A stretch of 64,000 nucleotides of DNA from an uncultured Gemmatimonadota bacterium (GTDB taxonomy: Bacteria > JAAXHH01), in the NCBI GenBank assembly GCA_951812955.1, contig OX638340.1, forward strand, positions 3,680,001-3,744,000, given 5' to 3'. A program made the position numbers and the translations under genes. The notes under the pieces are model-generated. The model made no database searches. It had not been told where the DNA came from and saw only the letters and a program-made list of their open reading frames with translations. Below are positions 42,149 to 56,807 of the stretch, one piece after another (within the stretch, counting starts at the first letter, position 1; each line of letters starts with the position of its first letter).

Positions 42149-44338
42149 TCAGACCATGCCGAAATACCGCCGAAACAGCCACTCGCCCGTGAGCAGGCAG
42201 ACCAGTACAGCCAACACGGCGGGATGGTTCCAGAACGAGACGGTGCGCGTCTCCCGAACGGTGACCTCGTCCATGCTGATGTCGTCGGCCAGGCGATCGA
42301 TTTCCGATGGGAGGTAGAATCCCCCGTCCGTCATATCGGCCAATTGGACGAGGAGTTTCCGGTTCATGCGCGTTCTCTCAAACTCGGCGCCGGCCTCGCC
42401 CACGACGAATCCACCGGCGTCCGTCCCGAGCGGGATGCCATTCAGCGCGGCGGTAGCTTCAAACGAATATGCGCCCGCGGGCAAAAACTGAAGGCGTCCC
42501 GCGTATCGACCGAGGCCCTGTCCAGTCGAAGAGAGGTCTAACCGGAACGCGCCTGCTTCGTCCTGCTCGGACCGAACCGTCACCGACAGATCGGCACGTT
42601 CGACCGGCCGGTACTGCTCGTCGTATACCTGACCGTCGAATCGAATCGATTCTCCGTCCACGTACTGCAGTTTATCCGATGCGACACGAATCCTGCGACT
42701 GCTCTCCCGCACGGTGACCCATCTGACGGCATTGTTCCAGAACCTCTCGTACGCCGCGTTGGTTCCGCCGCTACCCCACATCATAAGGTCCCATCGCCAC
42801 AGGCCATGGGCGGCCACGCCGAGCACGCTGCCCTGGCCGTAGCGATGCACGGCGATGACCGGTGCAAGCTCATTTCCGGTTCGCCATGTAGGATGTCTGG
42901 CGAGTACAGTCGCGCCAGGTTTTGCGCGCCCGACCTGGTTCATGCCGGGCAGGGGAGGCAATTCCATCCAGCGCCGTTCCGATTCGGCCGGGTCATCATC
43001 CAGGCGGGTGATCGGATGCGTGCCGCCGTCAGCCGTCAGTACCGGAACAAAAGACGCTTCCGTCATCCCTCTTGCCGCCGCGGCGATCCCGAATGGCATC
43101 AGATTACCGAGGGGCGTTCCGGCGTAACCGCCCATTTCAAAGCTGTTTGGGCCGCCGAACGCAATCAATCCGCCGCCCCTCTCCTCGACAAAGGACACAA
43201 GGTAAGGCGCCCATGGCCGGATGCGGTCATAGTCCACGCTGCCCAGCATTACGAGGTCATAGGAAAACCAATCCATACGTGAAGCGGGCATGGGTTCGGG
43301 ATAGGTCCGGCCGTCGGGCCGGAACAGGATACTCGTTACTTCCAGGTTGGCGTCTTTTTCCAGCGTTCGTCGCAGGAAACCCATGTCGGCGCGCGGGGCT
43401 CCCTCGATATACAGAACGCGTAAACCGGACTTCAACGCCTTGACCGTGAAGTCGCGTCGGTTGTTTCGTGCGGTGATCTCGCCCTCGAGTTCGGGAACTT
43501 CCACCTCGTACCGATGGATGCCCTCGGTCTCGGGAACGATATGGAAAACAACCGTCCGTTCCACTTCCTGACCATCCAGGGCGATTTCCTCACTCCGCAG
43601 GATACGGCCCTCTTCCCGCAAGGTGACGGGTACGCGCATACTGCCGTATCCACGTCCGCGCACGACGACTTCGACCGGGACGTTGCTTCCGGTGTATACC
43701 ACTTCATTGAACGTCAAATGGGAGATGCTGATATCCCGGACGCCTAACGTGTCGCCGATTCCCACCGTAAACAGGGGCAGATCGAGTGCCTCTGCGACCC
43801 GGAGCGGATCGCGTCCGACGGTGAAATTGCCATCGGTAACCAGGATGGCGGCGCCGAAACTGCCGGCGCCGAAACCGCCTTCAAGAGAGGACAGGGCGCC
43901 GCCGATGTCGGTGCCGGCGCCGTCGGTAGACAGGGAATCAATATCGCCCTCGGGCAAGGGCGACAGGTCCTCGGCAAACCGGTAACGATGGACGCGGTGA
44001 CGGGCTTCCAGGGTCTTCAACGCATCACCGGAAAGTACCGAGGAAAGCACTTCGTTTCGCGCTCCCAGGCGGTCCGTCAGTCCCATGCTCGCCGAGGTGT
44101 CGACGAGCACTGCCAGTCCGGGAGATTCGGTCCGTTCCACCAGCATGCGCGAAACGGGTTCGCTGAGAATCGCCAGAAGCACGGCGGCGGCCGCGATCCG
44201 TAGACCGACAAGCCCCCAGGCCGCGGCGGGCGACAAAAGGGTGAAGAGCCGCCGGGAAAGCCCGTAAATAAGGATACAGGCAAGGATGAAAGCGATGAGG
44301 ATCCAGGTGAGGGAATCCGCTTGGAAATCCAGGGGCAT
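42149..44338 (-). CDS. Membrane protein with N-terminal double-TM domain, VWA domain and C-terminal TM anchor (BatA-like)
   Basis: Two N-terminal TM helices. VWA-type MIDAS region (LVDTSASMG...ILVTDG). A GATase1-like/DUF4159-like middle region. A C-terminal TM helix. Confidence 0.6.
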   Translation of the reverse strand: MPLDFQADSLTWILIAFILACILIYGLSRRLFTLLSPAAAWGLVGLRIAAAAVLLAILSEPVSRMLVERTESPGLAVLVDTSASMGLTDRLGARNEVLSSVLSGDALKTLEARHRVHRYRFAEDLSPLPEGDIDSLSTDGAGTDIGGALSSLEGGFGAGSFGAAILVTDGNFTVGRDPLRVAEALDLPLFTVGIGDTLGVRDISISHLTFNEVVYTGSNVPVEVVVRGRGYGSMRVPVTLREEGRILRSEEIALDGQEVERTVVFHIVPETEGIHRYEVEVPELEGEITARNNRRDFTVKALKSGLRVLYIEGAPRADMGFLRRTLEKDANLEVTSILFRPDGRTYPEPMPASRMDWFSYDLVMLGSVDYDRIRPWAPYLVSFVEERGGGLIAFGGPNSFEMGGYAGTPLGNLMPFGIAAAARGMTEASFVPVLTADGGTHPITRLDDDPAESERRWMELPPLPGMNQVGRAKPGATVLARHPTWRTGNELAPVIAVHRYGQGSVLGVAAHGLWRWDLMMWGSGGTNAAYERFWNNAVRWVTVRESSRRIRVASDKLQYVDGESIRFDGQVYDEQYRPVERADLSVTVRSEQDEAGAFRLDLSSTGQGLGRYAGRLQFLPAGAYSFEATAALNGIPLGTDAGGFVVGEAGAEFERTRMNRKLLVQLADMTDGGFYLPSEIDRLADDISMDEVTVRETRTVSFWNHPAVLAVLVCLLTGEWLFRRYFGMV

Positions 44339-44498: not shown

Positions 44499-45878
44499 TT
44501 AGCGGCCAGGTTGCATGTCCTTTCCCAGGGCGCCGTCCAGCGTGGCCTGGGCGATCAGGTAATCGTACTGCGCTCCGGCCAGATCGGATTTCGCCCGCGC
44601 CAGGGCTTCCTGCGCCGTAAAGACATCCAGCAGCGTGCCGGAACCCACCCGGTATCGTTCCTCCGCCAGCCGGAGACTCTCCTCCGCCGCCACGATGTTG
44701 TCGTTGCTGAGCGTGATGACTTCCCGGGCCGTATCCAGGTTGAGCAACGCGCGTCTGATCGTCAGCGACGTGGCCCTGCGGGTTTGTCGCAGCGTCTCCT
44801 CCGCGATCAGCTGCTGCGCCTGCGCCTGCGAAATCTCGGCATAGGTCTGCGTGCCATTCAGGATCGGCATGGTGAGATTCAAATTGAAGGAAAGCCGCCA
44901 GTTCTTGTCATAGGTGCCGTAGACATCCTGGAAGCGAACGCCCGATCGGCTGTAACCTATGTTGCCGGATACCGTTGGCCAGAGTCCACTCCGGGCCAGT
45001 TTGGTCCCGAGCAACGCGGTACGGATGCCGCCCTCATCCCGCTGGATGGCGGGATTGGTCAGGTCGGCCAGCCGAAGCGCGTCCTGTAAGCCCATGGGCG
45101 CCGTCGTGTCGAGCGACCCGCCTTCCAGCGGATCTGCGATCCGGAACACCTCGTTGGAACCGATGCCCATGACATTGGCCAGTTCGGCACGGGCCTGCAT
45201 AACCGCATTCTCCTGGTTATGCAGGTTTATGCGCACGCCGCCAAGTTGGGCCCTGGTCTGCAGTACGTCCACGCGGGCCACGGAACCGATCTCGTACATA
45301 CTCTGGGTCCGTCGCAACTGTTCCTCGTTCAGGCGAACCTGTTCTTCCGTCACTTCTTTGAGACGCAAGGCGCGTAGCAGGTTGTAGTACCGGGTCTTCA
45401 CGTCCACGGTAACCTGGTTTTCGGTATTTACCTGGTCCAGTTTCCCGTTGTCTACCAGTTGCCTGTCACGCCGGATCGTGTTCCAGTTCCTGCCGCCATT
45501 GTACAGGTCCATGCGCAGGAAGACGTTGTTGCTATAGTTCGTCCGGGTGCTGCCCTCCGCTACCTGGAGCTGGACGCCTTCGACAATGATCGGAGTATCG
45601 CCGGAAGTCGTCCGATTCGCGTTTACTAAGTTGGCGTTCAGCTGGGGCATGACACCCGAATAGGAACCGAGGACGGCGGCCTGCCGGACTTCCACCTGTT
45701 TCCGGGCGATCTCGATCTGGGGGTTGTTCTCCAGCGCGATCTGAATGCATCTGTCCAGCGTGTAAAAAGCGCCCTGGTCGGGATCGATTCCGGCGTTCTG
45801 CCCGTGCGCTTTCTCCGCGGGGGACAACAGGCCAGTTACGATCAGGACGGCCCAGCAGATCGTATTCCGCATCATCAT
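44499..45878 (-). CDS. TolC-family outer membrane efflux protein
   Basis: Signal peptide, then two tandem repeats of the alpha-helical/beta-barrel TolC pattern (LTLDRCIQIALENNPQIEIAR...; ...LTLSNDNIVAAEESLRLAEERYRVGSGTLLDV). Confidence 0.85.
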   Translation of the reverse strand: MMMRNTICWAVLIVTGLLSPAEKAHGQNAGIDPDQGAFYTLDRCIQIALENNPQIEIARKQVEVRQAAVLGSYSGVMPQLNANLVNANRTTSGDTPIIVEGVQLQVAEGSTRTNYSNNVFLRMDLYNGGRNWNTIRRDRQLVDNGKLDQVNTENQVTVDVKTRYYNLLRALRLKEVTEEQVRLNEEQLRRTQSMYEIGSVARVDVLQTRAQLGGVRINLHNQENAVMQARAELANVMGIGSNEVFRIADPLEGGSLDTTAPMGLQDALRLADLTNPAIQRDEGGIRTALLGTKLARSGLWPTVSGNIGYSRSGVRFQDVYGTYDKNWRLSFNLNLTMPILNGTQTYAEISQAQAQQLIAEETLRQTRRATSLTIRRALLNLDTAREVITLSNDNIVAAEESLRLAEERYRVGSGTLLDVFTAQEALARAKSDLAGAQYDYLIAQATLDGALGKDMQPGR

Positions 45879-46040
45879 TGTATATCTCCTTGTTTCAATG
45901 GTAACGAAGGACCCTTTCAAGAATTAGACGGATAACCAGCCGAATTCCCGCGCAACAGATTGATTTATCTGTTAGACCCCGGACAGAATGGAAGGTTTCC
46001 GATTAACTGAGAAAGCGGGGAGAGAGAGGACGTCCGTCCG

Positions 46041-47180
46041 TCACCTGCGGCGTCGCCAGAGTATCAACAGGCCGACCGCGAGGACTCCCGCGCCCGCGCC
46101 GATCCACGAAGTATAACCCGTGGGAGAGGGAGATGCGGAGACCGCCGGCTTGATCGTGCAGAGCGAGGTGAGCAGTTCGACGGATTCGCTCACGGCCACG
46201 TCGCCGATCACCGTGAAGAGCTTTCCATCGTAATGCCTGCGCAGAATGGAATAGGGGCCGCGGTCCCACACGCGCACGTCGCCGAGCAGTTCGGGCGTAC
46301 CCTTGGGAGACATGTGAGACGCTTCGGAAGATGCGATCCGCTGGAAGAGCGAGATTCGCGAGAGGCCGTCGCTGTACATGAAATGCACGAGCGGCCGGCC
46401 GTGGTGCTGAATGACGCGGCGCTGCTGGAGGGCGAATCCCGGCGGAACGTAAACCGGGGCGTTCAATCTGAAATCCGCTTCCTGCTGCACTTCGCTGATG
46501 GATCCACAGGCAATGACCTGATTGATTTCGACGGACTTGCCCGTCCATTCCTCCGTAGCGAAGAGGTCCGGCGGGATAGACGGATCTTTTTCGAATTCCG
46601 TCAGGAAGAGTTCCTCGACGAGTACACCGGCCTCGTTGCGTTCTTCAGTCCGCATCACCAGGCCCGTTTCCTCGTCGATCCACGCCTTCATGGTCATTCT
46701 GCCGGGATGGCGGGGCTTGAAAGCCAGGACGGCCACCGGACGGTCGAGAAGCCGGTCGGCGCCGGTAATTTCGAGTTCGTAGTTGGTTTGAAGCAGATCG
46801 AGACTGCTGAACTCCAGGTTCATATCGAGCAGGTTGGAGTTCGACTGTCGGCGGTGCGAATAGAAGAGCGAGTCTCCCGAGGCCTTCCGCCGGTATATGT
46901 CGTCGTCCACGCGGATGATGACCTCACGGATGCGACCATCCGAATCGGGGATGTCGATGCGGTCCCGGTCAGGACGCTGATGGGTTATTCTCTGGACATA
47001 GCGGGTGGTGTCCCCCGCCGCGTTGAACCGCTGCTTCGTCATCGTGGCACGGTAGCTCACGCGGGCCGGAGCTTCCATGATCTTCTGGTAGGTTACATCC
47101 GGATCGACTGCGCGGACGGGAGAAGGGCTCGAAAGGCAGGCCGCGGCAACGAAACAGAGGAATACAGGTCGAAACATCAT
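46041..47180 (-). CDS. Periplasmic protein with C-terminal TM anchor, possible MucB/RseB-like (LolA-fold) partner of the anti-sigma factor
   Basis: Signal peptide, 379 aa. Ends in a hydrophobic helix followed by RRRR (SWIGAGAGVLAVGLLILWRRRR). The start lies 10 bp after the anti-sigma stop. The fold assignment is tentative. Confidence 0.4.
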   Translation of the reverse strand: MMFRPVFLCFVAAACLSSPSPVRAVDPDVTYQKIMEAPARVSYRATMTKQRFNAAGDTTRYVQRITHQRPDRDRIDIPDSDGRIREVIIRVDDDIYRRKASGDSLFYSHRRQSNSNLLDMNLEFSSLDLLQTNYELEITGADRLLDRPVAVLAFKPRHPGRMTMKAWIDEETGLVMRTEERNEAGVLVEELFLTEFEKDPSIPPDLFATEEWTGKSVEINQVIACGSISEVQQEADFRLNAPVYVPPGFALQQRRVIQHHGRPLVHFMYSDGLSRISLFQRIASSEASHMSPKGTPELLGDVRVWDRGPYSILRRHYDGKLFTVIGDVAVSESVELLTSLCTIKPAVSASPSPTGYTSWIGAGAGVLAVGLLILWRRRR

Positions 47181-47190
47181 GGCGTATCGC

Positions 47191-47682
47191 CTATTCCTTG
47201 TAGTTGACCATGACGGAACCCAGGGTACCGCTGGTAAAAACGCTTTGATCCTCGATCAGGGCGTGTTCCTGCAGGATGAAGAACATATCGTCGTTCGAGA
47301 TCGTCTGCTGGACGGCCGGCGTATCGACCGGCCTGATCGACTGCCAGATCAGCCCGCCGGCCACCAGTAAAAGCGTGGCAGCGACTGCGATGTATTGACG
47401 GGGCTGCTTGGTGCGCGACGCATCCCTTTTTTTCATGCCCGGAACCATATGGGCGTGTGTCGTGCGTTCCAGAATCGCAGTCTGGACTTCCGCTGCCACC
47501 ACCGCCGTGGGCTTCTCCAGGCGGCAGCAGCGCAACATGCCGCGGACGGACTGCAATCCGCGCAATTCCCGCGCGCAACCGGGGCAGGACTCGATGTGCC
47601 GCGCGATTTCGGCGACTTCCTCGTTGCCGCACATGCGCTCCAGGTAGAACGTGAGCCGTTTCTTTATCTGGTTGCAGTTCAT
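47191..47682 (-). CDS. Anti-sigma factor, zf-HC2 type (RseA/ChrR-like), single TM
   Basis: The N-terminal H-x3-C-x2-C motif (HIESCPGC) is the zf-HC2 anti-sigma domain. There is one TM helix (YIAVAATLLLVAGGLIW). It starts 9 bp after the sigma stop. Confidence 0.8.
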   Translation of the reverse strand: MNCNQIKKRLTFYLERMCGNEEVAEIARHIESCPGCARELRGLQSVRGMLRCCRLEKPTAVVAAEVQTAILERTTHAHMVPGMKKRDASRTKQPRQYIAVAATLLLVAGGLIWQSIRPVDTPAVQQTISNDDMFFILQEHALIEDQSVFTSGTLGSVMVNYKE

Positions 47683-47691
47683 GGCTTGGTC

Positions 47692-48363
47692 CTATAGATC
47701 CAGGTATCCGGCGAGTCGCTTGGAAAGCACGCGCTTCAACTTGAGCCGTCCGTGATGCAGCCGGGACATCACCGTCCCTTCGGGACACTGAAGTATCTCC
47801 GCGATCTGCCGGTGGGAGAGACCTTCCAGGTCGAACAGCACGACAACGGTCCGGTGCCGCTCCGACAGGGTATCCAGCGCGGCCATAATGGACCGCTTCA
47901 ACTCAGCGTTCTCCAGCACCTCGTGCGGAGTTTTCTCTGAGGACGGCAGATTGGAAACTAGAAACTGCTTTCCGGTGCCGCCGTTCCGCCCGCCGTAATC
48001 CGAAAAGGAGTACATGCGGCGTCGGGCCTCCCGCTTGCGGTAGTTGATACACTTGTTGATCAAAATGCGGTATAGCCAGGTCGAAAACCTATACTGCGTG
48101 TTGAACCGTTCCAGCGTTCTAAACACTTCGAGAAAGGCGTCCTGAACGAGGTCGCGCGCGTCATCGTGGCTCGCGAGCATCTGGTACGCCACGGAATAGG
48201 CCTTCTCGCTGTATCGCCTCGTCATTTCGTCGAAGGCGGAGCCATCGCCTGATTTGGCCCGTTCCATCAACCTTCGTTCTTCTTCGCGCCGGTCTTCGCT
48301 CGCGCCCTGGACGGCCGGTCTTTTCCGTTCCGCTACCGAATGGATTTTGCTGACGGTGTTCAC
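47692..48363 (-). CDS. ECF-type RNA polymerase sigma-70 factor
   Basis: Region 2 (AYQMLASHDDARDLVQDAFLEVF...FSTWLYRILINKCINYRK) and region 4 (LSHRQIAEILQCPEGTVMSRLHHGRLKLKRVL). Confidence 0.9.
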   Translation of the reverse strand: MNTVSKIHSVAERKRPAVQGASEDRREEERRLMERAKSGDGSAFDEMTRRYSEKAYSVAYQMLASHDDARDLVQDAFLEVFRTLERFNTQYRFSTWLYRILINKCINYRKREARRRMYSFSDYGGRNGGTGKQFLVSNLPSSEKTPHEVLENAELKRSIMAALDTLSERHRTVVVLFDLEGLSHRQIAEILQCPEGTVMSRLHHGRLKLKRVLSKRLAGYLDL

Positions 48364-48491
48364 CCAGTTACACCCCTGGTCCTATCCCATGCGTCTCTGT
48401 GACTGAATCCGTATACATCCTCAATCAGTTTATCTTCACAAAATGGCCGGATTCACGGCTGTTAAATCGTTTTGGATACACGTTACGGATA

Positions 48492-49469
48492 CTATGCAAG
48501 GCTGATTTCATTGGATTTCCGATACATCTCGAGTGCCTTGTCGAGCTGTCTGCTCTTGTCGTAGATCATGCCGAGATACCGGTACGCCTGTTCATTGCGC
48601 GGTTCATGACGGAGCAGGGTTTCGAAGTGCTCGATCGCTTCCGCATGCTTATCCACGTGACAGTATGCCTTGCCCAGTTGGAGATATACCTCCGCCTTCG
48701 ACCGGTCCACGTCCAACGCGCGGGAGAGTATCTTGATCGCTTCGTCGTAGATTCCGATAGTGATGTAAAGTACGCCGAGCTGATAGCAGGCCCGGTAAGA
48801 ATAAGGATCGTATTCCAGGGCGCTATGGAGGTCGGTCCTGGCATCCTCGAATTGTCCCATTTCCGCGTACAGCGCCGCACGGTCGACCAGCGTATCTATA
48901 TGTCCCGAATCGATCGCCAGGGCGCGATTGTAATGCTCACGCGCGGTTTCCTGGGCGCCGAGGCGGCAGTACATCCTGCCCAGACTGCCCATCGCGGCGG
49001 TGTGACCGGGATGCTGTTCGAGAATACGTCTGTACTGCTGGATCGCCAGTTCGGTTTTACCCTTATTCGCGAGGATCTCCGCCCGGTTCATCATCGCGGA
49101 GAGATCGTCGGTTCTGTTTTTTGGCGTTTCTTCGGCGTGTTGTTTCACCGTACCGGCAGATTCCGGCCTGGCAGGCTCTTCGGAAAGGGGCGACTGGCTC
49201 GCCACGGTGTCTTTCAAGGCATCGAAAGGAACGAAATGGGGAATGTTGCGGTCGTTCAGGCGCAATCCCACGTTGGAATTCAGATCTCGCGCCATGCGTG
49301 CTTTCCTGACTTTTACACTGAAGGCGCCGAACCGGTGGAGGTTCACTCGTTCGTCCCGGGAAATCGCCTCGTTTACTTCCGACAGGAACGCGTTGAGCAC
49401 TGCAGACACCCTGCGCCTGGAGACCTGGGTCCTGGATGCCACTTCGTTTACTAGCGATTCTCTGTTCAT
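48492..49469 (-). CDS. HU/IHF-type DNA-binding domain fused to C-terminal TPR repeats
   Basis: The N-terminal ~90 aa (MNRESLVNEVASRTQVSRRRVSAVLNAFLSEVNEAISRDERVNLHRFGAFSVKVRKARMARDLNSNVGLRLNDRNIPHFVPF) has the HU fold pattern. After a linker come at least five TPR motifs (AIQQYRRILEQHPGHTAAMGSLGRMY...). Confidence 0.7.
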   Translation of the reverse strand: MNRESLVNEVASRTQVSRRRVSAVLNAFLSEVNEAISRDERVNLHRFGAFSVKVRKARMARDLNSNVGLRLNDRNIPHFVPFDALKDTVASQSPLSEEPARPESAGTVKQHAEETPKNRTDDLSAMMNRAEILANKGKTELAIQQYRRILEQHPGHTAAMGSLGRMYCRLGAQETAREHYNRALAIDSGHIDTLVDRAALYAEMGQFEDARTDLHSALEYDPYSYRACYQLGVLYITIGIYDEAIKILSRALDVDRSKAEVYLQLGKAYCHVDKHAEAIEHFETLLRHEPRNEQAYRYLGMIYDKSRQLDKALEMYRKSNEISLA

Positions 49470-49706
49470 GGTGCTCCGGCTATGCTGAGGCGAAGCCGCA
49501 ATCGCCGTCGGGGAGCCCGTCCCGGCATGGCGACGACCGCCGTATATCGTGTTCTGCCAGTGACGTTTCAGGAAGGTCAAACGCTCGCACGCCTGGCCGC
49601 GTCATCTGGCTGTTAAGTATTATGGTCGTGATACCGAAAATCGGCCGTATCCTGCCGCATGTCAAGCAGGAATGAATGGACCGTGCGCTTATTGATCCTG
49701 CCCGGG

Positions 49707-49728
49707 CAACAAAAAGCGCACTGGCGCT
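49707..49728 (-). terminator. Candidate intrinsic terminator overlapping stop of PmoA-like gene
   Basis: The minus-strand RNA is AGCGCCAGUGCGCUUUUUGUUG: a 5-bp GC stem with a 4-nt loop, followed by a U-rich tract. Confidence 0.35.
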
Positions 49729-50650
49729 ACGTCCGGTCACGCCTGTCCGATTCTATCACGTAGGACCTGTACAGTTCATCGATCTCCCCTTCTCCGGGCA
49801 CGTTGTCCAGCACCAGGAATCCGTAACGGAGATGAAGGCTTTCCGTTGGTCGGAGCGTAAAGTCTTCCTCCATAAGCGGCCCTGTGCCCAGCAGGTTGCG
49901 GCGGGTAAACCAGTGCACCGGGTGGCGTAGGTTTCGCGGATGGTCCATGAGCACCACCATGCCACCCTGGGCGCCCGCGGCGCCGACCCACCTGTCCCGT
50001 GTTCTCATGATGGTTTCGTGTCCGCTGCGGCCGCTGCCGCTCGTATGGAACGCGTCCGCGAACGGAGGTCCCATTCGCAGGACCAAACCGCTGTAACGGG
50101 CGGCCCGCGAAGCTCCCATGGTGATTTCCTCCCCGATCGGAGTGATCACCGATTCGATGAGCCACAGACAGCCGCCGGCCCTGGCGGTCTCCAGGAACTC
50201 GAACCGCCGCGACTCCGTGATCAGCGGGCGGTCGTTGCGGTCCAGCCAGGTGAGATTTTCGCCTACCGCGACCCCGGATGCTCCATTTGCAGCCGGTGTG
50301 AATCCATCGTGGCGCTGAACGCCGTGGCTGTCCGGAACAGGAACGTATTCACCTTGTTCCGGCAGGTACCAGGAACCTCCCCAGAAATTGGTGTCGTTGA
50401 CGTGCACCCAGCCGAAATACAACCCCGTGTGCCAGGTGTGGTCGTCGGGACGGTATTCGCTGACCAGGCCGCCGGAAGGGGTGTAAACCGGATGAAAACA
50501 TGGCTTGGGCGATTCGTCCCGCGGCAACCGGTCGGTCGCGACGTTGTACCGGCACAGCAACCGGCGGTCCGCATAGACCTCGAATCCGTCCGCTTCGTTG
50601 ACTTCGAGCCGAAGATGGCTTAGGTTTCTTTTGAATGCGTCTGATCTCAT
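49727..50650 (-). CDS. PmoA-like family protein (DUF6807)
   Basis: KPCFHPVYTPSGGLV...DDHTWHTGLYFGW..VNDTNFW matches the DUF6807/PmoA family conserved N-terminal block. 307 aa. Confidence 0.6.
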   Translation of the reverse strand: MRSDAFKRNLSHLRLEVNEADGFEVYADRRLLCRYNVATDRLPRDESPKPCFHPVYTPSGGLVSEYRPDDHTWHTGLYFGWVHVNDTNFWGGSWYLPEQGEYVPVPDSHGVQRHDGFTPAANGASGVAVGENLTWLDRNDRPLITESRRFEFLETARAGGCLWLIESVITPIGEEITMGASRAARYSGLVLRMGPPFADAFHTSGSGRSGHETIMRTRDRWVGAAGAQGGMVVLMDHPRNLRHPVHWFTRRNLLGTGPLMEEDFTLRPTESLHLRYGFLVLDNVPGEGEIDELYRSYVIESDRRDRT

Positions 50651-50712
50651 AACTGGTGCCTTTACATGGATTATTCGATGCGACGAACCCCGTGCAATCC
50701 CGATCGGTTACT

Positions 50713-52944
50713 ATGAAGCTCAGCGCGGTACTGTTTTCCCTGCTGTTGATTCACGCCCCGGCGCAGGCCGCCACGATAAGCGGATTCGTCACGGATCGTA
50801 CCAGCGGTGAATTCCTGCTCTCCGCGAACGTATTCCTGAGCGGAACGTCGTTGGGCGCCTTGAGCAATGAGAGCGGCTATTATGCAATTACCGGGATACC
50901 CGCGGGATCCTACGTCCTCATCGTGTCATACCTCGGATACGAGACGCACCGGGACTCGCTTAGTCTCGGCGCCGAAGCGTATCTTCGGCTGGACGTGACC
51001 CTCGCGCCGACCGTGCTGATCGGCGAGGAAACCGTAGTCGAGGCGGATCGAAACAGAGACGAGCGCCTGGCTCAACCCGGTTTCGTCGCCCTCCAGGCCG
51101 CGGTACTGCAGGAGCTGCCCGCCATAGGGGAAACCGACTTGTTGCGCAGCCTGCAGCTCCTTCCGGGCATCCAGGCATCGTCGGATATAAGCAGCGGCCT
51201 GTACATCCGGGGCGGCGGTCCCGATCAGACCCAGATACTTCTCGATCAGATCCCCCTCTACAATCCCTCGCACGCATTCGGATTCTTTTCCATTTTCAAT
51301 CCGGAAGCCATCAAGGACATGCGCCTGCACAAGAGCGCTTATCCCGCCAGTTACGGCGGCAACCTCGGTGCGGTGCTCGACGTGACGAACCGCGACGGCA
51401 ACCGCAACGACCTTCGCGGATCGGGCGGAATCAGCCTCATCTCGATGCGCACCATGATCGAAGGCCCCCTTGCACGCGGCTCTTTCATGGTTTCCGGAAG
51501 GCGAACGTACCTGGAACCGATCCTGGCCTATATCCGGCGGCGCGTAGAGGATATCCCAGGATACTATTTCTATGATGTGAATGCGAAAATCAACCAGAAT
51601 CTGTCCTACTCGGACAATCTGGTGCTGAGCGGATACTTCGGCCGGGACGACCTGAACCTCGAAACCAGCGACGACAACCACTTCAACGTCCGCTGGGGCA
51701 ATTCCGCGATAACGGGCAAATGGACGCACCTGTTCTCGCCTACGCTATTCGGCAATTTCATTGTTTCGGGAAGCGACTACGCGAGCCGGCTTTCGGCGAA
51801 TTTCGACGGAACGGAAGTGCTCTTCAGGAACAGCATTCGGGACATCAGCGTCAAGGGCGACCTGGACTATGTCGCCGACGACCAACACGCGCTGAAGGGC
51901 GGTTTCCGCGCTACGGGATACCGGTTCAGATTCAAGCGGAGCTTCAACCAGGATGATCAGCTCGACCTCAGGCTGAGGCCCTACGTAGTCTCGGTATATG
52001 CCCAGGACCAGTGGCAGGCGCTGCCTTCGACCTCGATTCGCCTGGGACTGCGCGGGAACTATTACAGCGAACGCGGCAAGATCGACCTGGAGCCTCGTGT
52101 TTCGCTCAGTCACCGGCTGCCCGGCGGGTTGCGGCTGAAGGCGGGCGGCGGACGGTACCACCAGTACCTGCAACTGATCACCACGGAGGGCTTCAGCGGC
52201 GGCGATTTCTGGGTGCCGCTCGACAGCAGTGTGGAACCCGGTCAGGCGTGGCATTTCGTCATCGGCGCAAGTTGGGACCCGGCGCCGAACTACCGGCTAT
52301 CGCTCGAATCCTACTATCAGCGTTTGGGCAACCTGGTCGTCGTGGACAACACGCGGGCGGCAGGCGCCGATGAAACCCGGTCTGAGGACGTGTTCATCAC
52401 CGGTGGCAGGGGGTACGCCACGGGTGTGGAGCTGTTTGTGGAGCGCATGTCGGGCAGATTGACAGGATGGATCGGCTACACGCTCGGGTGGACGCGCCGC
52501 CAGTTCCCGGAACTGAACCAGGGTGACTGGTTTCCTCCGAAGTACGACCGTCGCCACGATCTCGTGGTTTCGGCCAATTACAGGGCCGGCCGCTGGACAT
52601 TTGGATGCAATGTGATTTTCGCAACCGGGCAGGCCTTCACGCCCGCCTCTGCCCGTTACGAATTGAGGGAATCGGCGCGAACCGGCATACGGGAGGACTA
52701 TTTCCTGCCCACCGGGCGCAATACCGCGCGGTTGCTGCCATACCACCGGGTGGACCTGAGCGTCAAGCAGGATTTTCGCCTGTTCGGCCGAGATCTCCAG
52801 TGGTATCTGCAGGTATTCAACGCCTACAATCATCGCAACGAATGGTTTATTCAGTACAATACGGAAGATGACGGGATCACCACCGCGGATGTGGTGAAGA
52901 TGCTGCCCATCGTACCGACGCTCGGCCTGAACTACGAATTCTGA
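50713..52944 (+). CDS. TonB-dependent receptor with N-terminal carboxypeptidase-regulatory-like domain
   Basis: Signal peptide. CarbopepD_reg pattern (ATISGFVTDRTSGEFL...GYYAITGIPAGSYVL). Plug motif ETDLLRSLQLLPGIQ. 22-strand barrel length. Ends in the C-terminal YEF. Confidence 0.9.
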   Translation: MKLSAVLFSLLLIHAPAQAATISGFVTDRTSGEFLLSANVFLSGTSLGALSNESGYYAITGIPAGSYVLIVSYLGYETHRDSLSLGAEAYLRLDVTLAPTVLIGEETVVEADRNRDERLAQPGFVALQAAVLQELPAIGETDLLRSLQLLPGIQASSDISSGLYIRGGGPDQTQILLDQIPLYNPSHAFGFFSIFNPEAIKDMRLHKSAYPASYGGNLGAVLDVTNRDGNRNDLRGSGGISLISMRTMIEGPLARGSFMVSGRRTYLEPILAYIRRRVEDIPGYYFYDVNAKINQNLSYSDNLVLSGYFGRDDLNLETSDDNHFNVRWGNSAITGKWTHLFSPTLFGNFIVSGSDYASRLSANFDGTEVLFRNSIRDISVKGDLDYVADDQHALKGGFRATGYRFRFKRSFNQDDQLDLRLRPYVVSVYAQDQWQALPSTSIRLGLRGNYYSERGKIDLEPRVSLSHRLPGGLRLKAGGGRYHQYLQLITTEGFSGGDFWVPLDSSVEPGQAWHFVIGASWDPAPNYRLSLESYYQRLGNLVVVDNTRAAGADETRSEDVFITGGRGYATGVELFVERMSGRLTGWIGYTLGWTRRQFPELNQGDWFPPKYDRRHDLVVSANYRAGRWTFGCNVIFATGQAFTPASARYELRESARTGIREDYFLPTGRNTARLLPYHRVDLSVKQDFRLFGRDLQWYLQVFNAYNHRNEWFIQYNTEDDGITTADVVKMLPIVPTLGLNYEF

Positions 52945-52946
52945 CC

Positions 52947-53840
52947 ATGCAGACCAAAACCAGGAAACCTCCATACATCCCGGGCGTGCTGGCGGTCGCC
53001 CTGCTTGCCGGTCTCTCCGTCCTTTCGAGTTGTAACGGGGAGCGGGACCCGGCGACGCTCTTCGGTCCGGACGAACGTGTAACCGTTGTCGTAGACGCCG
53101 TGCTGTACGTCGATCGTATCCTGCCGGAGATCATCGTCACCCGGACGCGCGCCGCGAATATCGCTTTTACCGAAGAAGCCGCTGCGGTGAACGATGCCGA
53201 GGTCACCATCATACAGGGACTTGCGGAATACAGGTACGAGCGCGTCGGCCACCTGGGCCGGTATCTTCCGCCGCCGGGATCGCCCAAGGTACGGCCCGGC
53301 ACTGAATACCGTCTTCACGTCCGCGCACTCGGCAAGGAAATCCGGGGCGTCACTAAAACTCCGGGACGCCTGTCCTTCGATGAAGTCGTCATCGTCGACG
53401 AGACTTCCATGGAAGTGCTAGACCGGCTCGAGCCCCGAACCACCCCCCGGAACCAGGTGGTGTACCGGGAGGGACTCATGGAGGTGAGGTTCGATCCCCT
53501 CGACGTGGAGGCATACCAGGTCGTCGTACTGGACAGGGAGGCCGATGACGAGGTCAGCTCGCCGCCGCTCGAAGCGCGGGACGGCCGCCTGGCGCTGCCC
53601 TGGTTCGCCATCGGCTCTTCCGGAGAACACGAAGTCGAAGTGTACGCGCTGGACCGGAACCTGTTCGATTTCCTTCGAAGCGTAGAGGCGTCCGGTCAGA
53701 ACGCCTTCGGGTTCGGCAGCCTCGCGGGCGATACCTTCGAACGCCCGGTTTTCAATCTCGACGGCGGAATCGGCGTTTTCGGCTCGGCTTCCGTGGGACG
53801 CTTCGGTTTCGTCGTCTTGCAGGAAGATCGAAGCGGTTAA
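52947..53840 (+). CDS. DUF4249-family lipoprotein (TonB-receptor-associated)
   Basis: Lipobox LSVLSSC. ~300 aa. Immediately downstream of the TonB-dependent receptor (a 3-bp gap), as is typical of DUF4249 partners. Confidence 0.6.
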   Translation: MQTKTRKPPYIPGVLAVALLAGLSVLSSCNGERDPATLFGPDERVTVVVDAVLYVDRILPEIIVTRTRAANIAFTEEAAAVNDAEVTIIQGLAEYRYERVGHLGRYLPPPGSPKVRPGTEYRLHVRALGKEIRGVTKTPGRLSFDEVVIVDETSMEVLDRLEPRTTPRNQVVYREGLMEVRFDPLDVEAYQVVVLDREADDEVSSPPLEARDGRLALPWFAIGSSGEHEVEVYALDRNLFDFLRSVEASGQNAFGFGSLAGDTFERPVFNLDGGIGVFGSASVGRFGFVVLQEDRSG

Positions 53841-53957
53841 ACTCACGGTCGGATAAACTTGCCGAACCGTTGTTTTGACAACGAACCCGTATGCGTCTAT
53901 CTTCTGGACGCGCAAGTCGACCCAGCACGACCGAATAACCGCAAACCGCGTGGCTAC

Positions 53958-56807
53958 ATGTCCCTTCGCTCTTCCCATTCCTCTCAACCGTACGGCTACC
54001 CGCCCCTTGCACGTTCCTTCTATGCGATCCAACCTGAAACGCAGACCGGGGCGCATACCGGCCCGTTCACCGTCGTGCCCGTTCTGCGGGGCGAGGTCCT
54101 GGAAGCGTGCGCCGGACTCGGCCTGGAAGAGATTCGGGACATGGCCCGCGACCGGGCGGACGGCGCCTATCTCGTGGTCTGCGATCCGAGCACCGAACTC
54201 GCGGAACGGCTCTGGCAGATCGCGGCCGGTCTCGACTCGTTCGTATTGGATGTAAGGCTTCTCGCACGGATTCTGCTACCCGGGCTGAAAGACTACGAGC
54301 CGGCCACGGTGGCGGCATGCTTCGACGCGGCCCAGCCGCGCGGACAGGACGCTGCAGACGCTGGCCGCATGACGGCCTGGAACTGCCTGAAGCTTAGCGG
54401 TCTGCTATCGGACATGGACGCGGATACGTTGGAGACCCTGGTACGCCTGTCGGAGGGCGGGGGAACCGGTTTGGAACGGGTGCTCGCCGAGACCCGAAGC
54501 GCCAGGGCGACGACGGAGCGCACCGAACCGGACGCCGGGGATATCCGGCGTAACCTGCCTTTCGATCCCGGCACGCATTCCATCGGGGAGGGTTCATGCG
54601 ACCCCGGCGAGGAATCCGAAGCGCCCGACCCGCTTGACGTGGACGAGTTGGCCGGCCTGTTCGAAGAGGGCGGTCATTTTGAAAGCCGCATGGAAGGTTT
54701 CGAGCAGCGGCCGCAGCAGGTATCCATGGTCCGCGGGATCGCCAGGGCATTCAACGACGGCGAGGTATTCGTGGTAGAAGCGGGCACGGGCACCGGGAAA
54801 TCGCTCTCCTATCTGACGCCGGCCCTGCTGTGGGCCGTGCGGAATGGCCTGCGCGTAATCGTATCCACCAACACCAGGAATCTGCAGGAGCAACTTTTTT
54901 ACAAGGATCTGCCCTTCCTGCTGGACAACCTGGGGGTGCCCTTCAGCGCCACGCTGCTCAAGGGCCGGTCGAACTATCTGTGTCTGGACCGCTGGCGGCA
55001 GGTGATCCGGCGTCCGGAGGATCATCTCACACCGGAAGAACGGGAGGCCGCGATTCCCCTGGTGGTGTGGGCACGTGGGACGAATACGGGTGACGTCGCC
55101 GAACACGCGGGATTCAACACGGGAGCGAACCGCGGGCTTTGGGAGAAAATCAACGGGGAAGGGAGCGCCTGTCCCCGGTGCGCGGTCAAGGATGCGTGTT
55201 TCGTCAATCGGGCCAGGGCGGCCGCCCTCACCTCCCACGTCGTCATCGTCAATCATGCGCTGCTGTTCTCCGACCTGGAGGCCGACCACGCCGTGCTGTC
55301 CCGCTACACCCATCTCGTTGTCGACGAAGCCCACAATCTCGAACGGGCGGCCGTGCAACACCTGACCCTGGAAATCGGAGGCTGGCGCCTGCGCAACTCG
55401 CTGCGCAGGATATACTCCGCCGATCTCGGCGGAACCGGCGTGCTGGCCGGATTGGAGAGGCTGGCCACCCGGGCCGCCGAGAACCAGGAATGGAAGAGCC
55501 CGCTCGCTGCGGGCGTCCACCTGACCATCGACCGCCTGGCGGAGATGAACAGGAGGATCGAGACATTCTTCCGAGTGGCCGGCGAGGAAGCGCTGGACCG
55601 GTCCGAGGAGGAGGCGGACCGGACCCCCGGCCGATTGCCCGGGAGGACAAAGCTAAGGTACCGGGCCGATGACGGCTATACCCGGGTGCTGAGGTCGTCG
55701 TCGCGGGACCTCATCGCGTGTTGCGCGAGTCTGAATGAAGCCCTCGGACTCCTGCAGGGAACGCTTCAATCCGTTCCCGATTCCTGGTTGGAAGACCGTG
55801 AAGAGAGAATGGATGCGATACAGGCCGCCGCGGATTTCTGTCTGGAAATCGAAGAGCGTGTTTCCATACTCACCGAAGCCGAAGATGAAGCGCGGGTTTA
55901 CTGGGTGGAAGCCACGCGAGGTCAACCCCTGTCCTGCGTCCTTACGGGCGCGCCGCTCAGGGTGGCGGAACGGTTGCACGACGGTCTCTTCGACCGGATG
56001 CGGACCGTCGTGCTCACCTCGGCGACGCTGGCGGTGGGAGACCGGTTCGACTACCAGGTCGAAAGACTGGGACTCGACCGGGTTCCGGATGGGCGGTTGC
56101 GGGTCCAGGGTATCGGTTCGCCCTTCGACTACGAGGACCAGGTGATGATCGGCGTGCCCTCGGTTTTTCCATCTCCCAGATCCGGGGCTTTTCAGGCAGC
56201 GATCAGCAGGCTCATCCTGGATCTGGTCGTTTCCACGAGGCGCAGCACACTGGTCCTTTTCACCTCTTACAGCCAGTTGAACCGCACCTTCCAGGACATC
56301 GAATCGCCCCTCGCGGAACACGGCGTGGTTGTGATGGCGCAAGGGACGTCCGGGCCGCGGACCGTGCTGCTGGATCGTTTCAGAAGGACCGCCGCCGCCG
56401 TATTGCTGGGCACCGACAGCTTCTGGGAAGGGGTCGACGTGCCAGGCAAGTCGCTCGAGGTGGTCGTGATGGTAAAATTGCCTTTCGCCGTGCCGAGCGA
56501 ACCGCTGGTACAGGCCCAGATGGAGAGACTGGAAGAAGCCGGCCGCAACAGCTTTCTGGAGTACCAGGTGCCGGAGGCCGTCATCAAATTCAGGCAGGGC
56601 TTCGGCCGGCTCATCCGGTCGACGAGAGACTACGGCGTCGTAACGATTCTGGACCAGCGTGTGATCAGCACGACTTATGGACACCAGTTTCTCCATGCCC
56701 TTCCCGCGAGGTCGGAGGTTTTTCCCGACGCCGACGCCCTCGTGGAACGCGTGGCTTACTGGTTCAAGGCCCGTGAGAAACGGAAGACCGGCGGGATCCG
56801 GCCATAA
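53958..56807 (+). CDS. DinG-family ATP-dependent helicase (Rad3-related, Fe-S) with ~250-aa N-terminal extension
   Basis: Walker A AGTGTGKS. A four-Cys Fe-S cluster region (YLCLDRW...CPRCAVKDACFVNR). DEAH box VVDEAHNL. C-terminal helicase motifs. The N-terminal domain lacks the DEDD exonuclease motifs. Confidence 0.8.
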   Translation: MSLRSSHSSQPYGYPPLARSFYAIQPETQTGAHTGPFTVVPVLRGEVLEACAGLGLEEIRDMARDRADGAYLVVCDPSTELAERLWQIAAGLDSFVLDVRLLARILLPGLKDYEPATVAACFDAAQPRGQDAADAGRMTAWNCLKLSGLLSDMDADTLETLVRLSEGGGTGLERVLAETRSARATTERTEPDAGDIRRNLPFDPGTHSIGEGSCDPGEESEAPDPLDVDELAGLFEEGGHFESRMEGFEQRPQQVSMVRGIARAFNDGEVFVVEAGTGTGKSLSYLTPALLWAVRNGLRVIVSTNTRNLQEQLFYKDLPFLLDNLGVPFSATLLKGRSNYLCLDRWRQVIRRPEDHLTPEEREAAIPLVVWARGTNTGDVAEHAGFNTGANRGLWEKINGEGSACPRCAVKDACFVNRARAAALTSHVVIVNHALLFSDLEADHAVLSRYTHLVVDEAHNLERAAVQHLTLEIGGWRLRNSLRRIYSADLGGTGVLAGLERLATRAAENQEWKSPLAAGVHLTIDRLAEMNRRIETFFRVAGEEALDRSEEEADRTPGRLPGRTKLRYRADDGYTRVLRSSSRDLIACCASLNEALGLLQGTLQSVPDSWLEDREERMDAIQAAADFCLEIEERVSILTEAEDEARVYWVEATRGQPLSCVLTGAPLRVAERLHDGLFDRMRTVVLTSATLAVGDRFDYQVERLGLDRVPDGRLRVQGIGSPFDYEDQVMIGVPSVFPSPRSGAFQAAISRLILDLVVSTRRSTLVLFTSYSQLNRTFQDIESPLAEHGVVVMAQGTSGPRTVLLDRFRRTAAAVLLGTDSFWEGVDVPGKSLEVVVMVKLPFAVPSEPLVQAQMERLEEAGRNSFLEYQVPEAVIKFRQGFGRLIRSTRDYGVVTILDQRVISTTYGHQFLHALPARSEVFPDADALVERVAYWFKAREKRKTGGIRP

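Follow-up and report, generated by a model that had tools for sequence, protein, structure and literature searches.

An HU-fold DNA-binding domain fused to a six-repeat TPR array, encoded beside an envelope-stress-type sigma operon in Latescibacterota

The stretch of DNA analysed here (the window) comprises 64,000 nucleotides of contig OX638340.1 from an uncultured Gemmatimonadota bacterium and encodes, on the minus strand at window positions 48492-49469, a 325-residue protein in which an HU/IHF-fold DNA-binding domain is joined through a disordered linker to six tetratricopeptide repeats (TPRs). HU and IHF are textbook small stand-alone nucleoid proteins, and it is, to our knowledge, rare for them to be fused to an array dedicated to the docking of proteins. 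The protein, which we call HU-TPR, is a new domain architecture within the known HU/IHF superfamily; it is real, conserved and experimentally unstudied. Its gene stands just upstream of an operon for a sigma factor of the extracytoplasmic function (ECF) type. We lean, tentatively and at somewhat less than an even chance, towards the proposal that HU-TPR acts as an architectural co-factor of this adjacent envelope-stress module.

The gene is organised as follows.

49474-49477, minus strand: Shine-Dalgarno sequence GGAG, 4 nucleotides (nt) before the ATG
49197-49469, minus strand: HU/IHF-fold DNA-binding domain, residues 1-91 (PF00216 and gapless alignment to solved HU structures)
49116-49196, minus strand: disordered acidic and proline-rich linker, residues 92-118 (model confidence and composition)
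48495-49115, minus strand: six TPRs, residues 119-325 (Pfam TPR_1 and TPR_2, helices of the AF2 model)
48492-48494, minus strand: stop codon TAG (read from the sequence)

The open reading frame (ORF) as listed runs from a TTG over 48492-49580 and would give 362 residues, the ATG at 49469 being internal and in frame. On sequence grounds we assign the true start to this ATG, because GGAG precedes it by 4 nt, because nearly all homologues begin MNRE or MTK at that residue, and because in four loci the promoter lies only 39-40 nt upstream, which leaves no room for a 37-residue extension. The context (C/T)GGAGCA(T/A)C-ATG is kept across the main clade in the alignment of loci. The protein has no signal peptide and is cytoplasmic.

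That the N-terminal domain is HU-like had been proposed in a first-pass annotation of the window, and profile searches, which matched both Bac_DNA_binding and TPR, bear this out. Residues 1-89 match positions 1-89 of the 90 in the Bac_DNA_binding model PF00216 (E 7.9e-20; 71.3 bits against a cut-off of 22.4), which places the domain at full length within the HU/IHF superfamily, and residues 1-90 align without gaps to Anabaena HU (PDB 1P51) as well as to 1B8Z and 5EKA. With a full-length match and a gapless alignment, the possibility that the domain might not score as HU/IHF at all, for which the annotation had allowed, did not materialise. Of the core residues, F47, G48, F50, L6, L25 and V42 do not vary among the 33 family members compared and L29 is at least 90% conserved, which is consistent with an HU-type dimer.

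The DNA-binding arm is retained in a modified form. The 1P51 pattern R-x-G-R-N-P-x-T-G is aligned with R-x-A-R-D-L-x-S-N (the peptide RMARDLNSNVGLRLNDRNIPHFVPF starts at residue 58) and reads R-x-A-R-D-L-x-(S/T)-N across the family, in keeping with the earlier description of an R-x-G-x-N-P arm partly preserved. Invariant in the same 33 members are R55, R58, A60, R61, L63, N66, P77, F79, P81, F82 and K86. These include three basic residues of the arm, R55, R58 and R61, as well as K86 near the C-terminus of the domain; in HU/IHF, DNA contact is assigned to these positions. The intercalating proline (Pro63 in Anabaena HU numbering) is replaced by an invariant leucine. We considered this exchange as a sign of lost DNA binding or decay and rejected that view, for Ile, Leu, Phe and Met are common at this position in the nearest HU proteins: an exhaustive phmmer search with the HU domain against 1.84 billion representatives gave 2,503 matches, and among the domains of the best 150, our family excluded, position 63 is P in 90, I in 38, L in 14, F in 6 and M in 3, many of the arms without proline being of the Bacteroidetes type 'ARNISKN'. 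By this comparison a hydrophobic wedge is retained at the tip of the arm. The HU part has an isoelectric point of 11.3 (9.5-11 in distant members), that of the TPR part being about 6 (6.2).

The domain stays below the cut-offs of all four NCBIfam equivalogs of its superfamily, IHF-beta scoring highest (51.2 bits against 115), followed by HU-alpha (39.9 against 162), HU-beta (38.5 against 157) and IHF-alpha (38.4 against 111). The HU-HIG model PF18291 also matches (37.6 bits against 26.2), more weakly than PF00216, and HU-TPR does not belong to the HU-HIG clade, its C-terminal part being TPR: Pfam finds no winged helix-turn-helix (wHTH) or Ig domain in the protein, nor a transmembrane (TM) segment, SPOR or LysM domain.

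The linker had been described as roughly 30% Pro, Glu, Ser, Thr and Ala; it is indeed present, with a measured content about twice that estimate, namely 63% for residues 92-118 and 57% for residues 88-127. It is also the least conserved part of the protein, with 46% identity within the main clade, 7-15% to a distant clade described below and a length that varies by more than 30 residues. The best-conserved part between the clades is the HU domain (44-48% identity, as against 35% for the TPRs). In an AF2 model of the single chain, built on a 33-sequence family alignment (mean per-residue confidence, pLDDT, 81.7; predicted template-modelling score, pTM, 0.60), the helices of the HU domain are confident, arm residues 48-70 are of low confidence, as expected for a monomer, and residues 93-118 fall below a pLDDT of 50, which marks the linker as disordered. 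The model gives no sign of the TPRs packing on the arms, and with a pTM of 0.60 the HU and TPR parts appear to be independent of each other.

As for the repeats, at least five had been proposed; the array stands and the number can now be fixed at six. Pfam TPR_1 and TPR_2 each match six stretches over about residues 123-325 (109 and 107 bits), the repeats run in register from residues 123, 157, 191, 225, 259 and 293, and the AF2 model shows 12 helices between residues 116 and 324 with pLDDT above 94. HU-TPR thus belongs to the TPR proteins, whose solenoids are built of three or more tandem 34-residue helix-turn-helix repeats. Foldseek against the PDB returned only generic TPR solenoids (consensus TPR at E 2e-12, the TPRs of OGT, MamA, PilF) and no solved structure that joins HU to TPR. 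The NCBIfam TPR equivalogs remain below their cut-offs (MamA 90.6 against 200, PrsT 88.1 against 312, PilW 73.3 against 154). BTAD (PF03704) matches residues 118-185 with 39.7 bits, beneath stronger generic TPR matches, and HU-TPR is not a SARP regulator, its N-terminal domain being HU and not Trans_reg_C in Pfam.

In a TPR motif it is usually positions 2, 5, 9, 12 and 13 that point towards the ligand and vary most. Scoring of 23 diverse family members gave these positions a mean top-residue frequency of 0.74 in TPR5, 0.68 in TPR6 and 0.38-0.47 in TPR1-4; they are thus conserved in the last two repeats only. Within TPR5-6, H271, K305, E283 and N320 are invariant and E260, K267 and D304 are 78-95% conserved; the conserved positions of the concave face, E260, K267, H271, D304 and K305, lie in these two repeats alone. 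It is plausible that this conserved groove serves for the docking of a partner at the C-terminal end of the array.

A search with the full protein recovered 32 clusters (at 90% identity) with 53-99% identity and 321-364 residues, and three clusters with 34-36% identity and 360 residues, all with PF00216 and TPRs. A profile of the distant members added nine further clusters of 345-377 residues, bringing the family to more than 40, and in that search the E-values jump from 1e-114 to 1e-40, the point at which TPR-only proteins begin. A full-length gene is present in 20 GTDB species representatives, several of which are single-contig assemblies of 3.5-3.9 Mb. The carriers are metagenome-assembled genomes (MAGs) titled Candidatus Latescibacterota, 'Gemmatimonadetes' or 'bacterium', many of them presumably from sponges or corals to judge by their isolate names. 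The distant members, which share 36% identity with the main clade over the whole protein, come from unlabelled metagenome contigs and from MAGs with Latescibacterota or Gemmatimonadota in their titles, one of which is a groundwater MAG. Judged by these searches, HU-TPR is restricted to the Latescibacterota lineage, which answers the question of the fusion's phylogenetic spread that the first-pass annotation had raised. Two Verrucomicrobia loci, L037 and L039, came up as candidate independent fusions and were rejected, as they encode kinase-TPR or TPR-only proteins with no HU domain; the remaining matches in the scan of GTDB representatives are TPR-only.

Seen from the HU side, long proteins with an N-terminal HU domain and a TPR tail among the best 150 HU matches belong to this family only (P0001, P0036, P0106 and P0107). 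Short HU-only entries are fragments at contig ends (P0103 is labelled 'partial'; P0104 and P0109 are apparent fragments), and the homologue searches found no stand-alone version of the TPR part. The next-nearest relatives are ordinary HU proteins of 90-105 residues at 33-40% identity and tandem-HU proteins. Unusual architectures also occur among these relatives (matches P0186, P0209, P0120 and P0108): in one, tandem HU domains come after an NAGPA (phosphodiester glycosidase) domain, in another they precede a PP-binding (carrier protein) domain, and in a third they are accompanied by a C-terminal segment that is hydrophobic as judged by eye. Databases name HU-TPR generically, as 'tetratricopeptide repeat protein', 'hypothetical protein' or, at JGI, 'TPR repeat protein/nucleoid DNA-binding protein'; full-text searches of open-access papers found none on the fusion, and a survey of HU-superfamily architectures mentions TPR 0 times (PMC5499826). 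As far as these searches reach, the earlier impression that the function is uncharacterised thus holds.

Immediately downstream of HU-TPR, on the same strand, lies a conserved block of genes.

47692-48363, minus strand: ECF sigma factor, 223 residues (Pfam Sigma70_r2, r4_2 and Sigma70_ECF)
47191-47682, minus strand: zf-HC2 anti-sigma factor, 163 residues (PF13490 on residues 3-37; position kept in all family loci)
46041-47180, minus strand: MucB/RseB-like periplasmic regulator, 379 residues (PF03888 and PF17188; position conserved)
44499-45920, minus strand: TolC-family outer-membrane channel (OEP), 473 residues (PF02321, 222 bits; position conserved)
42149-44338, minus strand: 729-residue protein, the last conserved member of the syntenic block

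The succession of sigma factor, membrane anti-sigma factor and MucB/RseB-like regulator is that of an RpoE/AlgU-type envelope-stress module. The sigma factor scores 119 bits with TIGR02937 (cut-off 42.9) and is most like the SigW and RpoE groups, and since the equivalog cut-offs for RpoE, SigW and RseB are not reached, we regard the operon as being of the RpoE/RseA/RseB type rather than as its orthologue. The channel, too, remains under the cut-off of TIGR01844 (185.6 bits against 225).

The order HU-TPR, ECF sigma factor, zf-HC2 protein and MucB/RseB-like protein is found in 20 of 20 GTDB species loci, with the OEP gene wherever the stretch reaches that far, and again in close metagenomic loci. 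A scan of metagenome contigs from the sigma side found sigma orthologues of at least 67% identity and then a gap down to at most 39%. HU-TPR is present in all six sigma-orthologue loci with enough upstream DNA, and the same scan found no HU domain near any of about 70 other ECF loci. The sigma factors are 85-98% identical within the main clade, and about 73% identical over the aligned part to one member of the distant clade; this is unusually strong conservation, HU-TPR falling to 36% identity between the same clades.

In distant-clade loci HU-TPR still precedes the ECF block despite entirely different upstream genes. The order there is a PorV/PorQ-family outer-membrane protein (OMP), HU-TPR, a protein that we call X, and then ECF sigma factor, anti-sigma factor, MucB/RseB-like protein, OEP and the 729-residue-type gene, the whole facing a divergent Wzz/Wzy/Wzx/glycosyltransferase cluster.

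L081:697-1839, L004:4935-5966 and L084:6556-7587: PorV/PorQ-family OMP of the distant clade, directly before HU-TPR
L004:7110-8429, L081:2944-4170, L083:9134-10171, L084:8648-10126 and L085:9074-10723: protein X, 345-549 residues, between HU-TPR and the sigma gene

The genes for the OMP, HU-TPR and X are packed with gaps of 0-23 nt, X starting 26 nt beyond the HU-TPR stop in L004 and 0-3 nt beyond it in the other four loci. The OMP scores 89.7 bits with NF033709, whose cut-off is 90. Protein X has a conserved N-terminal part of about 230 residues that a spacer rich in Pro and Glu separates from some 70 conserved residues at the C-terminus; it has no sequence match in Pfam, NCBIfam or the PDB. 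Within the 64-kb window there is no homologue of the PorV-like OMP or of X.

At the far end of the block, a gene of 729-730 residues directly follows the OEP gene in L001, L083 and L084, and follows a minus-strand Fe-ADH gene in L002 and L005. The 729-residue protein of the window has no Pfam or NCBIfam match; a faint BatA-like/VWA signal was seen at the C-terminus of the L084 copy.

HU-TPR and the sigma operon each have a conserved transcription signal of their own.

49637-49665, minus strand: promoter-like element of HU-TPR, TTGACA, 17-nt spacer, GATTTT (consensus and conservation)
49478-49636, minus strand: 5' leader, variable and not required (missing from four related loci)
48411-48438, minus strand: two-block motif TGAAGA-N16-GTATAC between the HU-TPR stop and the sigma gene

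The element upstream of HU-TPR combines a perfect -35 hexamer with a plausible -10, and ATTCTTGCTTGACA-N17-GATT(T/A)T is kept in all 23 main-clade loci aligned. A simple promoter scanner did not list it, its second hexamer lacking T at position 1. We infer that it is a sigma-70-type promoter of HU-TPR, probably driven by the housekeeping sigma factor. In most loci the element lies 182-273 nt before the ATG, with a leader of 180-270 nt in between; in L010, L017, L020 and L024 this leader is cleanly deleted. A regulatory RNA in this leader was considered and rejected: there is no Rfam match in 48300-49800, the fold of 49470-49650, a stretch that includes 14 nt (49637-49650) at the end of the promoter-like element, has a z-score of -0.06 against shuffles, and four loci do without the leader altogether.

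The two-block motif occurs once in the window, where 0.00 sites are expected, and so stands before the sigma gene only, with no further copy in the 64 kb. Each family locus has one site of the form TGAAG-N16-18-GTATA(C), in every case shortly before the sigma gene and, in the distant clade, after gene X; the motif is thus kept between clades with about 62-70% identity in the sigma protein. In layout it resembles ECF promoters such as the SigW type, TGAAAC-N16-CGTA, and it is probably an autoregulated ECF-type promoter of the sigma operon. In L081 and L083 the called start codon of the sigma gene falls inside the motif, and the sigma N-termini are therefore probably mis-called in these two loci. 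By eye, the alignment of loci shows no IHF-consensus site between the HU-TPR stop and the sigma promoter. With separate conserved promoters, HU-TPR appears to form its own transcription unit 5' of an ECF-driven operon.

Upstream of HU-TPR, the main-clade neighbourhood in the window contains a DUF6807 gene (49727-50650, minus strand) that ends in a terminator-like hairpin, a divergent TonB-dependent-receptor-like gene (CarboxypepD_reg and Plug; 50656-52944, plus strand) and a DUF4249 gene (52947-53840, plus strand). Beyond these lies a 982-residue DinG-type helicase (53859-56807, plus strand) whose helicase domains are recognisable only from about residue 280.

How might such a protein act? The first-pass annotation had suggested a DNA-binding module with a protein-interaction scaffold that tethers a partner, and this remains the best reading, refined now by the linkage to an ECF sigma factor, by the restriction to one phylum and by the observation that the leucine of the arm is a common variant. 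What the sequences show is the architecture, its conservation, the retained DNA-contact residues, the synteny and the separate promoters; dimerisation, binding to DNA, the identity of the TPR partner and an effect on transcription belong to the proposal. Because HU-TPR is always placed just upstream of that ECF block, the module is the likely partner or target. In the scheme that we favour tentatively, the HU domain would form an HU/IHF-type homodimer that clamps and bends DNA with its two beta-ribbon arms, the arm leucine standing in for the usual intercalating proline, and a flexible linker of about 27 residues would carry a six-TPR solenoid on each subunit. Perhaps HU-TPR binds DNA at ECF-dependent promoters or close to them, among which would be the conserved promoter-like motif shortly after the HU-TPR stop codon, while the conserved groove of TPR5-6 docks a protein partner, such that the DNA-bound protein would keep in place the sigma factor, the anti-sigma factor by its cytoplasmic part, or RNA polymerase. 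A more specific version, in which HU-TPR is a dedicated DNA-bound adaptor whose TPR5-6 groove holds the sigma factor, or the cytoplasmic domain of the membrane anti-sigma factor, at the DNA, is in our estimate unlikely.

Several observations weigh against a functional tie to the ECF module. The linkage is confounded by phylogeny: HU-TPR and the sigma orthogroup are both confined to one lineage, and perfect co-occurrence could therefore be inherited gene order. The two transcription units have separate conserved promoters, and there is no ECF-type motif upstream of HU-TPR, so that membership of this gene in the sigma regulon is not obvious. In the distant clade HU-TPR is apparently co-transcribed with the PorV/PorQ-family OMP and protein X, so the partner of the TPRs could lie there. 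Finally, the perfect -35 box suggests constitutive and possibly high expression, which would suit a general nucleoid protein.

The main alternative, possible if rather doubtful, is that HU-TPR is simply the general nucleoid HU of this lineage, with TPRs for self-association, DNA bridging or contact with general chromosome factors and with a synteny that is inherited and functionally meaningless. Lineage-specific extensions are found on other HU proteins (PMC5499826). The HU domain of HU-TPR is full-length and basic and keeps its DNA-contact residues; the conserved, near-consensus housekeeping-type promoter TTGACA-N17-GATT(T/A)T is apart from that of the sigma operon; there is no second HU gene within the 64-kb window; and the synteny of HU-TPR and sigma factor is seen in one phylum only. 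However, the block has held together while all upstream genes were replaced between clades that are 36% identical in HU-TPR. Moreover, a principal HU usually ranks with the best-conserved proteins of its genome, whereas HU-TPR, at 63-95% identity where the neighbouring sigma factor is at 85-98%, evolves faster than its neighbour.

A co-factor of the ECF module must also be set against a function without any DNA. The HU fold could serve solely as a dimerisation module, or bind protein or RNA, in a dimeric TPR scaffold for envelope biogenesis, with the PorV/PorQ-type OMP, protein X or the neighbouring polysaccharide genes, all of them from the distant clade, as candidate clients. A role without DNA has been proposed for the Ig-fused HU-HIG proteins, and several features of HU-TPR would fit one: the replacement of the intercalating Pro63, the match to HU-HIG at 37.6 bits, and the tight placement of the distant-clade gene between the OMP and X, facing the Wzx/Wzy/Wzz cluster. 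HU domains are also described in which a fused domain occludes the clasp (PMC5499826). Yet R55, R58, R61 and K86 are invariant and the HU domain has a pI of 11.3, a hydrophobic residue 63 is common among the best 150 HU relatives, the long linker predicted to be disordered argues against a fixed packing of the TPRs over the clasp, and a protein with no signal peptide would have no direct contact with a mature outer-membrane protein. We consider this scenario improbable.

More remote still is a role as a 'eukaryote-like' TPR protein with which sponge symbionts interact with their hosts. The isolate names of the closest relatives' MAGs, as we read them, suggest sponge or coral hosts. TPR proteins are also listed as a eukaryote-like class in sponge-associated Latescibacterota (PMC12993501). 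However, HU-TPR has no signal peptide, its N-terminus is a DNA-binding domain, its TPR part has been kept in company with a regulatory operon of bacterial type, and the family and its synteny extend to a groundwater MAG and other environmental metagenome contigs, which makes a host-directed function highly improbable. Last, an artefactual fusion of two genes through a frameshift or a missed stop, the doubt raised by the first-pass annotation, would have hidden in the poorly conserved linker; no evidence for it was found, and it is refuted by the same unbroken ORF in 32 close and three plus nine distant clusters and in 20 species, which short-read and long-read assemblies show independently.

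Comparison with known systems helps to place HU-TPR. With classical HU/IHF (1P51, E. coli IHF-beta) it shares the helical body and beta-arm, including F47, G48, F50, R55, R58 and R61, but those proteins are stand-alone and of about 90-100 residues, while HU-TPR has 325 residues with a linker and six TPRs and differs by Pro63 to Leu, G60 to Ala and G82 to Phe. RNPP regulators (PlcR, NprR and Rap type) and SARP/BTAD regulators join an N-terminal DNA-binding domain to a TPR-like array with a peptide or protein as its ligand. HU-TPR follows the same logic with an HU fold in place of the helix-turn-helix or OmpR-type winged helix, and there are no peptide-signalling genes near it.

Closer in their DNA-binding part are the extended HU architectures (PMC5499826), HU-HIG with wHTH, Ig or Gly-rich tails and bacterial HU-CCDC81 with TM and SPOR or LysM parts, in which HU is likewise the N-terminal module of a larger protein. 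Like the HU-TPR family, these are most diverse in Bacteroidetes-related (FCB) bacteria, and Ile or Leu in place of Pro63 is common to HU-TPR and many Bacteroidetes-type HU proteins. They have been proposed to tether DNA to something else (PMC5499826); in HU-TPR, by contrast, the fused module is a cytoplasmic TPR solenoid.

Two systems tied to ECF sigma factors offer functional parallels in the absence of homology. In Myxococcus xanthus, CarD (with CarG) is needed for several ECF sigma factors (PMC4374960). CarD resembles HU-TPR in uniting a low-specificity architectural DNA-binding module with a protein-interaction module, and in its tie to ECF factors, in the sense of 'works like' only: it consists of a CarD_CdnL_TRCF domain and an HMGA-type AT-hook tail, and a requirement in ECF transcription is demonstrated for CarD but only proposed for HU-TPR. 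In ECF42 sigma factors, TPR extensions are essential for activity, and the array of about 200 residues is thought to act through protein contacts (PMC8999054). There, however, the TPRs are within the sigma polypeptide and there is no anti-sigma factor, whereas here they are on a separate DNA-binding protein, which has no sigma-70 domain, and the neighbouring sigma factor of 223 residues has regions r2 and r4 only and a zf-HC2 anti-sigma factor. HU-TPR and its neighbour are thus not of the ECF42 type.

The fusion of HU to TPRs is fixed in the Latescibacterota that carry it and locked beside an envelope-stress sigma operon. In surveys of sponge symbionts it is classed as a 'eukaryote-like' TPR protein, while the evidence points to an ancient cytoplasmic DNA-binding regulator. 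If HU-TPR does act on the adjacent module, ECF-dependent transcription in Latescibacterota would need an architectural co-factor of the HU fold or, alternatively, there would be a physical tether between the sigma locus and the sensor of envelope stress. Were the TPRs to recruit the sigma factor, the anti-sigma factor or RNA polymerase, an architectural DNA-binding protein would serve as a built-in ECF co-factor, and this would represent a new way in which a nucleoid protein may be coupled with sigma-factor signalling.

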